Origin: Chlamydiota bacterium
GTDB taxonomy: Bacteria; Chlamydiota; Chlamydiia; Chlamydiales; SM23-39
Length of the DNA: 33,716 nt
Assembly: GCA_050049995.1 (NCBI GenBank)
Contig: JASFVE010000011.1
Location: 1-33,716, forward strand
Direction: 5' to 3'
Under the pieces are notes generated by a model. It was not told the origin of the DNA. It saw only the letters and a list, made by a program, of their open reading frames with translations, and did not search any database. The translations under genes and the position numbers were made by a program. Below, piece after piece: positions 1,612 to 2,226 of the stretch (position 1 is its first letter; every line of letters starts with the position of its first letter).

Positions 1612-2226
1612 ATGACGGCTTTAAGTCAAAGGACATGCTCACTTTTTTCTACTGAAGTTCAAAATGGAATGACACCTTCTAGTCTTGAGTATCAACAGTT
1701 GCCAAGCATAACTAGAGAATATTCTTTATTTCCTAAAATTCAAAATATAGCCTTGAGAGCGCACAAGGCACATTCTGTTCAGTCAAAAACTCCTCGAAAA
1801 CCTATTTCGCAATCGAAAATTTTTTTTCAACCTCAAATGACTCATGTGACTTTTCCTATCCTAGCACCAGGACAATCCCAAATAGTTCCAATAAATCAAG
1901 AAAATAATGAACAAAACTTTACCCGTCATTTTACCCTTTTGTGTGAGGATTATGCACTTGGAAAAAGCTGCAGAACTAACAGATGTACTTTTGCACATGG
2001 AGAGGAACGACAAATAAAGGTTGAAGTAAAGCCCTCTCATAAAATTTGCAATGCCTGGCAAATTGGATTTTGCCGTTACGGAATCAATTGCAGGGACAGG
2101 CATGTAGATCTCCCTAAATATAAAACAAAGCTGTGTAGATCCTTCATGAAAAATAAAAAATGTCCGGATGGGGATCATTGTATGTATGCACATGGAAGAG
2201 GCGAGCAAAGAAAACAACAACTTTAG
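1612..2226 (+). CDS. Eukaryote-like protein with three CCCH zinc fingers (TIS11/tristetraprolin-like), candidate RNA-binding effector
   Basis: C-x8-C-x4-C-x3-H (CEDYALGKSCRTNRCTFAH), C-x7-C-x5-C-x3-H (CNAWQIGFCRYGINCRDRH) and C-x8-C-x5-C-x3-H (CRSFMKNKKCPDGDHCMYAH), the last preceded by a KYKTKL lead-in. S/T/Q/P-rich N-terminal ~105 aa. Confidence 0.88.
   Translation: MTALSQRTCSLFSTEVQNGMTPSSLEYQQLPSITREYSLFPKIQNIALRAHKAHSVQSKTPRKPISQSKIFFQPQMTHVTFPILAPGQSQIVPINQENNEQNFTRHFTLLCEDYALGKSCRTNRCTFAHGEERQIKVEVKPSHKICNAWQIGFCRYGINCRDRHVDLPKYKTKLCRSFMKNKKCPDGDHCMYAHGRGEQRKQQL

Follow-up and report, generated by a model that had tools for sequence, protein, structure and literature searches.

Three eukaryote-type CCCH zinc fingers in a native chlamydial protein: a candidate host RNA-binding effector

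Introduction

Contig JASFVE010000011.1 of a Chlamydiota bacterium (GenBank assembly GCA_050049995.1)—analysed here over its whole length of 33.7 kb and referred to below as the window—encodes a protein of 204 amino acids (aa) whose C-terminal half (aa 106–204) is, by motif and by profile, a run of three CCCH zinc fingers of eukaryote type. We find that this gene, here called the CCCH gene, is native to the bacterium, an environmental chlamydia, and selectively maintained, and we propose that its product is likely to bind RNA. The fuller statement, that it is a secreted, host-RNA-binding protein, combines several steps and strikes us as evenly poised between right and wrong.

Intracellular bacteria are known for effectors built on eukaryote-like domains, with ankyrin, F-box, U-box and SET-domain examples. 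The recognised targets of bacterial effectors include host proteins, membranes, chromatin and translation factors; to our knowledge, hardly any effector engages host mRNA directly by way of a eukaryotic RNA-binding module. The theme of eukaryote-like effector candidates is familiar and its CCCH-finger version apparently undescribed: no bacterial CCCH-finger protein or effector was described in the full-text literature that we searched, a scope that excluded subscription journals and supplements. The window protein resembles the known effectors of this kind in its eukaryotic domain, obligate intracellular lineage, patchy distribution, want of a Sec signal and possession of a secretion system in the same genome; it differs from them in that the domain is a CCCH finger and that its secretion is a proposal. 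For the CCCH class as a whole, RNA binding is the function given in one account (PMC12787238).

Three zinc fingers at the C-terminus

Each finger combines three cysteines and one histidine in C-x7-8-C-x4-5-C-x3-H spacing, and a regular-expression search of the translation placed all three within 1942–2193, with linkers of 16 aa between fingers 1 and 2 and 10 aa between fingers 2 and 3 (Table 1), in agreement with an initial annotation of the window that had given the same positions and lengths. The Pfam family zf-CCCH (PF00642), against which that annotation had proposed a HMMER check, matches the protein at E = 3.6e-14 and 52.7 bits, above the curated cut-off of 20.5 bits and far above chance; two stretches pass, and the best (residues 170–196, in finger 3) covers all 27 profile positions. 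A six-frame scan of the genome gave the same family 34.3 bits at window positions 2119–2199, and zf-CCCH_12 produced a weak match at residues 110–131, in finger 1. A minus-strand open reading frame (ORF) at 1861–2235 (124 aa) was rejected as a shadow frame, as the Pfam match and the purifying selection described below both sit in the plus frame. Scans found no sigma-70-like promoter site in the 88-bp spacer upstream of the CCCH gene and no terminator 3′ of it.

Table 1. Coordinates of the CCCH gene, its parts and the gene convergent with it, in window positions.
Feature	Position	Strand	Basis and remarks
Coding sequence, 204-aa CCCH zinc-finger protein	1612..2226	+	ORF list; ATG start, stop codon included; Pfam zf-CCCH
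N-terminal region, aa 1–105	1612..1926	+	Genus-specific, no predicted fold; candidate secretion signal and/or effector-function region
Finger 1, C111-x8-C-x4-C-x3-H129	1942..1998	+	Regular expression on translation; lead-in RHFTLLC, tail FAHGEE
Finger 2, C146-x7-C-x5-C-x3-H164	2047..2103	+	Regular expression on translation; lead-in PSHKIC, contains RYGINC
Finger 3, C175-x8-C-x5-C-x3-H194	2134..2193 (motif); 2116..2199 (with lead-in and tail)	+	Regular expression; lead-in KYKTKL, tail AHGRGEQR
Mitochondrial-carrier-family gene	2247..3059	-	Pfam Mito_carr, E = 4e-16, two stretches; convergent with CCCH gene

The initial annotation had likened finger 3 to the fingers of TIS11/tristetraprolin (TTP) on account of its lead-in and its AHG..EQR tail, and a sequence search of the PDB bore this out. 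The best matches were tristetraprolin (1m9o, E = 6.2e-10), a C3H1 protein (9y10), TIS11d (1rgo, E = 9.2e-9) and POS-1 (6nzl), all of them aligned to residues 168–201, that is, to finger 3 with its lead-in and tail, and the fingers of CPSF30 matched the region of fingers 1 and 2 weakly (E = 4e-3 to 7e-3; 7k95 and 7zyh at 4e-3 to 6e-3). From an alignment of 30 sequences, AlphaFold2 produced a model with pLDDT values of about 94/89 for finger 1, about 80 for finger 2 and about 95 for finger 3, with 43–56 for residues 1–105. When this model was compared with the PDB using Foldseek, the top rows were all CCCH RNA-binding fingers (POS-1, TIS11d, CPSF30, Unkempt and MBNL1; best E = 1.4e-3), and CPSF30 finger complexes with NS1A and Fip1 were among the matches.

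The TTP family is defined in one source by two C-x8-C-x5-C-x3-H fingers set 18 residues apart (PMC13406598). Many members are described elsewhere as carrying a C-terminal NOT1-binding peptide together with disordered, Trp-bearing regions that recruit CCR4-NOT, the CNBD of human TTP being its C-terminal 13 residues according to the same account (PMC12350847). Finger 3 resembles TTP and TIS11d (the ZFP36 family; 1m9o, 1rgo) in its x8-x5 spacing, in a lead-in that agrees with that of the TTP chains at six of seven positions (Cys counted) and in its AHG..(E)xR tail, with the aromatic residue before the His kept. Unlike TTP, the window protein has three fingers rather than two, neither linker is 18 aa long, x8-x5 spacing is found in finger 3 only (x8-x4 in finger 1, x7-x5 in finger 2) and a YKT-type lead-in precedes finger 3 only. 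The chain also stops 10 residues after His194 and so, judged from length and with no motif model, lacks the C-terminal NOT1-binding peptide, which is absent from some eukaryotic members too, and its N-terminal half has no Trp. On these sequence features, the CCCH protein does not belong to the TTP family, and finger 3 may work like one TTP finger.

Multi-finger eukaryotic CCCH proteins—CPSF30, Unkempt, POS-1, MBNL1 and the dinoflagellate and copepod proteins mentioned below—are like the window protein in having several closely spaced fingers of mixed x7/x8 spacing, and unlike it outside the fingers: no resemblance extends to the N-terminal half, which is without a relative. The full architecture, [x8,x4]-16-[x7,x5]-10-[x8,x5], occurred in none of the 150 listed matches except the orthologue. 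These comparisons bear on one alternative, in which the protein is again a secreted effector and its fingers serve mainly as protein-interaction modules or as binders of structured or other nucleic acids, for example by docking on, or competing with, host RNA-processing complexes. We judge this improbable: the CPSF30-type matches of fingers 1 and 2, the NS1A and Fip1 complexes found by Foldseek, the linkers that are not those of TTP and the key aromatic positions, which differ from TTP in every finger, all favour it, and against them stand the full KYKTKL lead-in and AHG tail that finger 3 shares with TTP/TIS11d, as well as the RNA binding described for the class (PMC12787238).

A native gene under purifying selection

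A domain typical of eukaryotes, with a copepod and a dinoflagellate as its named nearest matches, might have reached the dataset as an artefact, through eukaryotic or viral DNA wrongly binned with, or joined to, a metagenome-assembled genome (MAG) that consists of 122 contigs (1.88 Mb, 98.4% complete) and has an estimated contamination of 2.5%. The CCCH gene is flanked by bacterial genes on both sides, and elsewhere on the contig are genes of ordinary bacterial function: those for LysE, a protein of the choloylglycine-hydrolase family, ABC subunits like LolC/E and LolD, phosphoketolase, acetate kinase (AckA), RmlA, PncA and PncB. A second MAG, a genome of the same genus, repeats the gene order on a contig of 53.9 kb and is collinear with the window over positions 825–3129 (87.6% nucleotide identity) and 4150–12401 (90%); the left end of the window (1–825) has no alignment to it. 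An independent assembly, from a run that is possibly the source sample, yielded a single contig that covers window positions 1–3648 with zero differences and bridges the gene and both of its neighbours.

Composition tells the same story. When 597 genome ORFs of similar length are ranked by synonymous-codon score, the CCCH gene comes at the 76th percentile; its GC content at third codon positions (GC3) is 0.265 against 0.270 ± 0.035 for genome ORFs and its overall GC content is 37% against 35%. The gene has no introns, and no relative was found in the viral contigs searched. Bacterial neighbours, synteny, the independent contig and native codon use and GC3 together rule out contamination or chimerism, so that the contig-linkage check called for by the initial annotation came out in favour of a sound assembly. 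An artefact is refuted as far as sequence data allow, and we give it next to no credence.

The ratio of non-synonymous to synonymous substitution rates (dN/dS), estimated between the window gene and its same-genus orthologue by the Nei-Gojobori method in a custom script, was 0.20 overall, 0.09 for residues 106–204 and 0.42 for residues 1–105. The orthologue retains all 12 zinc ligands, and the single indel between the two genes, of five codons, is in frame. A decaying relic of an old transfer, devoid of present function, would sit well with the divergence of fingers 1 and 2 from the consensus and with the narrow distribution of the gene; given a frame that is intact in both genomes, a complete set of ligands and ratios below one in both halves of the protein, we hold it to be very improbable.

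Distribution and origin of the fingers

The genome search recovered an orthologue in just one of 40 relatives, a genome of the same genus (84% identity), and this orthologue is also the only close relative among 5.8 billion clustered proteins, where it appears as a 209-aa hypothetical protein with 82% identity from the MAG ‘Chlamydiae bacterium CG10...35_9’. Widespread homologues with a housekeeping role, which the initial annotation had raised as a counter-indication, were thus not what we found, and its statement that such fingers are very rare in bacteria held up when larger collections were searched. PF00642 was found in none of 14 control genomes. Within an even sample of the window’s phylum, 15 of 400 genomes carried a match (window genome included; one further genome was unscored), nine of them at E ≤ 5e-5; some of the weak matches, in frames of 31–53 aa, probably represent noise or fragments. 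The corresponding figure for the phylum of a ‘Verrucomicrobiaceae’ MAG, with this centre genome excluded, was 3 of 300, all three being partial matches (E = 5e-4 to 1e-3) in frames of 29–81 aa.

When 185,579 species genomes were searched with a strict pattern for TTP-type fingers (YKT[E/K/Q]LC-x8-C-x5-C-x3-H, as degenerate DNA), for which a hand calculation predicts about one chance match in the collection, nine loci were found. Chlamydiae MAGs account for four of them and the ‘Verrucomicrobiaceae’ MAG for two, which are identical copies; an Endozoicomonadaceae, a ‘Pelagibacteraceae’ and a ‘Proteobacteria’ MAG have one each. CCCH proteins are sporadic but recurrent in the Chlamydiae, in some 2–4% of sampled genomes, and were almost never encountered in the other bacteria that we examined.

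The small chlamydial CCCH proteins (149–277 aa) share the layout of the window protein, in which an S/T/P-rich N-terminus of no known family is followed by C-terminal fingers. They differ from it in that their N-termini are unrelated, their loci are non-syntenic and their finger numbers vary, similarity being limited to the fingers. Those of genomes G007 and G260 and of a Parachlamydiaceae MAG (locus L036) follow the canonical TTP geometry, with two x8-x5 fingers that have YKT-type lead-ins and are joined by an 18-residue linker. A 277-aa protein from another genus of the same chlamydial family (G186) contains an [x8,x5]-16-[x7,x5] pair with a YGINC turn as in fingers 1 and 2 of the window protein (44% over 54 aa). 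It is therefore probable that fingers 1 and 2 form a module belonging to the chlamydial family and that finger 3 is an addition of the window’s genus.

Outside the Chlamydiae, the Endozoicomonadaceae MAG encodes a 471-aa protein (locus L033, 448–1860, minus strand) with two x8-x5 fingers, an 18-aa linker and the lead-ins KYKTELC and KYKTKLC (zf-CCCH, E = 6.6e-21), followed by a long region that has no Pfam match.

An exhaustive HMMER search of 1.84 billion proteins returned 1979 matches at E ≤ 1e-3, headed by proteins of 500–1200 aa with 7–13 fingers. Among 20 matches looked up, five carried names: three eukaryotic proteins (one from a copepod and two from a dinoflagellate) and two entries called ‘hypothetical protein’. 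Those short metagenomic matches that come nearest to finger 3 reach, for example, 68% over 31 aa, and ranking by bit score does not separate chlamydial fingers from eukaryotic ones. A repeat of just 27–35 aa, present in several paralogous copies per protein, does not support a reliable tree of the fingers; the exhaustive search identified no donor, and the composition of the gene bears no sign of recent transfer. The domain is eukaryotic in type, and the gene may be host-derived, as the initial annotation had suggested.

The N-terminal half and the secretion apparatus

Residues 1–105 have no relative besides the orthologue, either in the exhaustive HMMER search, where all best stretches fall within residues 88–204, or in a local BLAST search. 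The ESM Atlas scores for the N-terminal part (0.75–0.78) all belong to zf-CCCH clusters and are whole-protein scores at the level of a lead, with nothing for the N-terminus itself. The initial annotation had described this half as low in complexity and free of a Sec signal, and the second part of that description stands: no Sec signal, transmembrane segment or hydrophobic segment was found in the N-terminal 105 aa (maximum Kyte-Doolittle value of 0.77 over 19 residues). The first part does not, with an entropy of 3.94 bits against 4.16 bits for the finger half, and the region is rich in Q/S/T/P (43 of 105 residues).

Ser/Thr-rich composition is commonly reported for type III signals. Ser and Thr make up 36% of the first 25 aa of the CCCH protein, against a genome mean of 13.6%, which corresponds to the 98th percentile in a ranking of 1349 genome ORFs (150 aa or longer, their starts crudely called). 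A type III secretion apparatus is also present: profile searches of the genome identified SctV (FHIPEP, 754 bits) on contig C20 and, adjoining it, an HrpJ-domain gatekeeper of the SctW/CopN type (63 bits), and with SctV and SctW side by side an injectisome is, on these profile matches, encoded in the genome.

Proposed function and alternatives

We propose that the three fingers of aa 106–204 most likely grip single-stranded RNA, each reading a few bases, and that finger 3 would act like a tristetraprolin/TIS11d finger. The genus-specific and probably unstructured N-terminal half would most likely carry the type III secretion signal, so that the protein could be delivered into a eukaryotic, probably protist, host cell and bind host RNA there. 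The recurrence of CCCH proteins in host-dependent bacteria and the layout that the other chlamydial ones have in common with this protein speak for such a reading. By occupying or masking U/AU-rich sites in competition with host factors, it would stabilise RNAs or block other binders. Masking is more likely than triggering decay because the CCR4-NOT-recruiting tail and the tryptophans of TTP are absent. Zinc and RNA binding, secretion, the host target and the direction of the effect are what we infer, and a specific effect on the stability of mRNAs with AU-rich elements (AREs) seems doubtful. If the model is true, a fragment comprising aa 105–204 would bind single-stranded RNA sequence-specifically (UUAUUUAUU-type and poly-U probes).

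Several observations weigh against this proposal. Each finger departs from the TTP consensus: in the PDB-sequence alignment, finger 3 has Asp where TTP has the Tyr of the x-Y-G turn; finger 2 keeps the Tyr of the turn and has no aromatic residue between its third Cys and its His; and finger 1 has x4 spacing and no Y-G. ARE specificity is therefore not to be assumed. CCCH fingers can bind proteins too, as the fold matches to CPSF30 with NS1A and Fip1 illustrate, and Foldseek returned nothing at E ≤ 1e-3 for the AlphaFold2 model. The richness of the N-terminus in Ser and Thr is a weak and non-specific secretion cue. Among the sequencing runs listed there was no RNA run with the locus; three DNA metagenome runs had it, one possibly the source, and the other two contained small shares of the locus in pieces of 151–218 bases. 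Finally, the bacterium is itself AT-rich (35% GC), so that AU-rich RNAs are present in its own cell and the target may be internal.

The last of these points belongs to the main rival explanation, in which the CCCH protein stays in the bacterium and regulates chlamydial transcripts by binding RNA or another single-stranded nucleic acid, for instance during the developmental cycle. U/AU-rich RNA would be plentiful in such a bacterium, and both the strong purifying selection that acts on the fingers and a codon use that is fully native speak for this reading. We nevertheless think an internal regulator unlikely, since its orthologue is restricted to one of 40 relatives, within the genus; since the other chlamydial CCCH proteins lie at unrelated loci and have unrelated N-termini, unlike a core regulator; since the family is essentially unseen in free-living bacteria (none of the 14 controls and 3 of 300 genomes, marginally); and since the N-terminus resembles a delivery or disordered region, not a bacterial partner domain.

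Extended beyond this one gene, the proposal of a secreted host-RNA-binding protein becomes more tentative: Chlamydiae and at least one Endozoicomonadaceae symbiont may have repeatedly recruited TTP-like CCCH fingers as injected readers of host mRNA, mimics of ARE-binding proteins that would compete with the host’s own ARE-binders, a generalisation about which we are rather sceptical. If true, TTP-like fingers stripped of decay-recruiting regions would amount to a naturally occurring competitor of ARE-binding proteins, this competition would rewire the stability or translation of host mRNA, and the protein would offer a tool to study the control of mRNA decay in protists. The recurrent chlamydial set, with its several architectures, 18-aa tandem fingers and the helicase fusions described below, may outweigh the single gene in importance.

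Other bacterial CCCH loci

Chlamydial SF1 helicases of about 1040–1055 aa (AAA_11/AAA_12) carry a single C-terminal CCCH finger with a YKT-type lead-in. These loci, all on the minus strand, are L037 (4358–7522), L038 (4411–7542) and L039 (3739–6855), and also L029 (1459–2901); two paralogues occur in genome G176, which measures 2.6 Mb, and one in G340. As with the small chlamydial proteins, there is no synteny between these helicase loci and the window, and likeness to the window protein stops at the finger. The ‘Proteobacteria’ MAG encodes a similar helicase tail with a CCCH finger. Two further chlamydial proteins, of 359 aa (L015, 841–1917, minus strand) and 307 aa (L019, 1288–2208, plus strand), have in common a single N-terminal CCCH finger and a C-terminal stretch of some 200 conserved aa without a Pfam match.

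The ‘Verrucomicrobiaceae’ MAG (L031/L032; genome G413) has six PF00642 matches and identical CCCH gene copies on two contigs, C4 and C20 of that assembly; duplication of an element, or foreign DNA of viral or eukaryotic origin, could account for them. The ‘Pelagibacteraceae’ MAG combines a CCCH finger with a SAM domain (L028, 1027–2217, plus strand) on a contig of 22% GC that is likely not bacterial DNA.

Neighbouring genes in the window

The mitochondrial-carrier-family gene lies tail-to-tail with the CCCH gene, 20 bp away. Its product is 90% identical in the same-genus genome (G001) and has weak matches in just 2 of the 39 other relatives; two adjacent eukaryote-like genes therefore have one common, genus-restricted distribution. 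We take this neighbour to resemble a secreted carrier known from Legionella.

Beyond it, window positions 3092–4339 (minus strand) encode a single protein with glycosyltransferase-2 and TPR parts. It is missing at this place in the same-genus genome, where only 66 bp (3631–3696) align, a difference that is probably a deletion in that relative. An ORF at 11–895 (plus strand) belongs to no Pfam family and seems, by eye, to have two similar halves, and a 618-aa ORF at 5450–7306 (minus strand), likewise without a Pfam family, seems by eye to have hydrophobic stretches near both ends. Further along, positions 18057–20540 (minus strand) encode a P-type ATPase that is a proton pump of plasma-membrane type (TIGR01647, 962 bits, cut-off 615), an unusual type of pump for a chlamydia.

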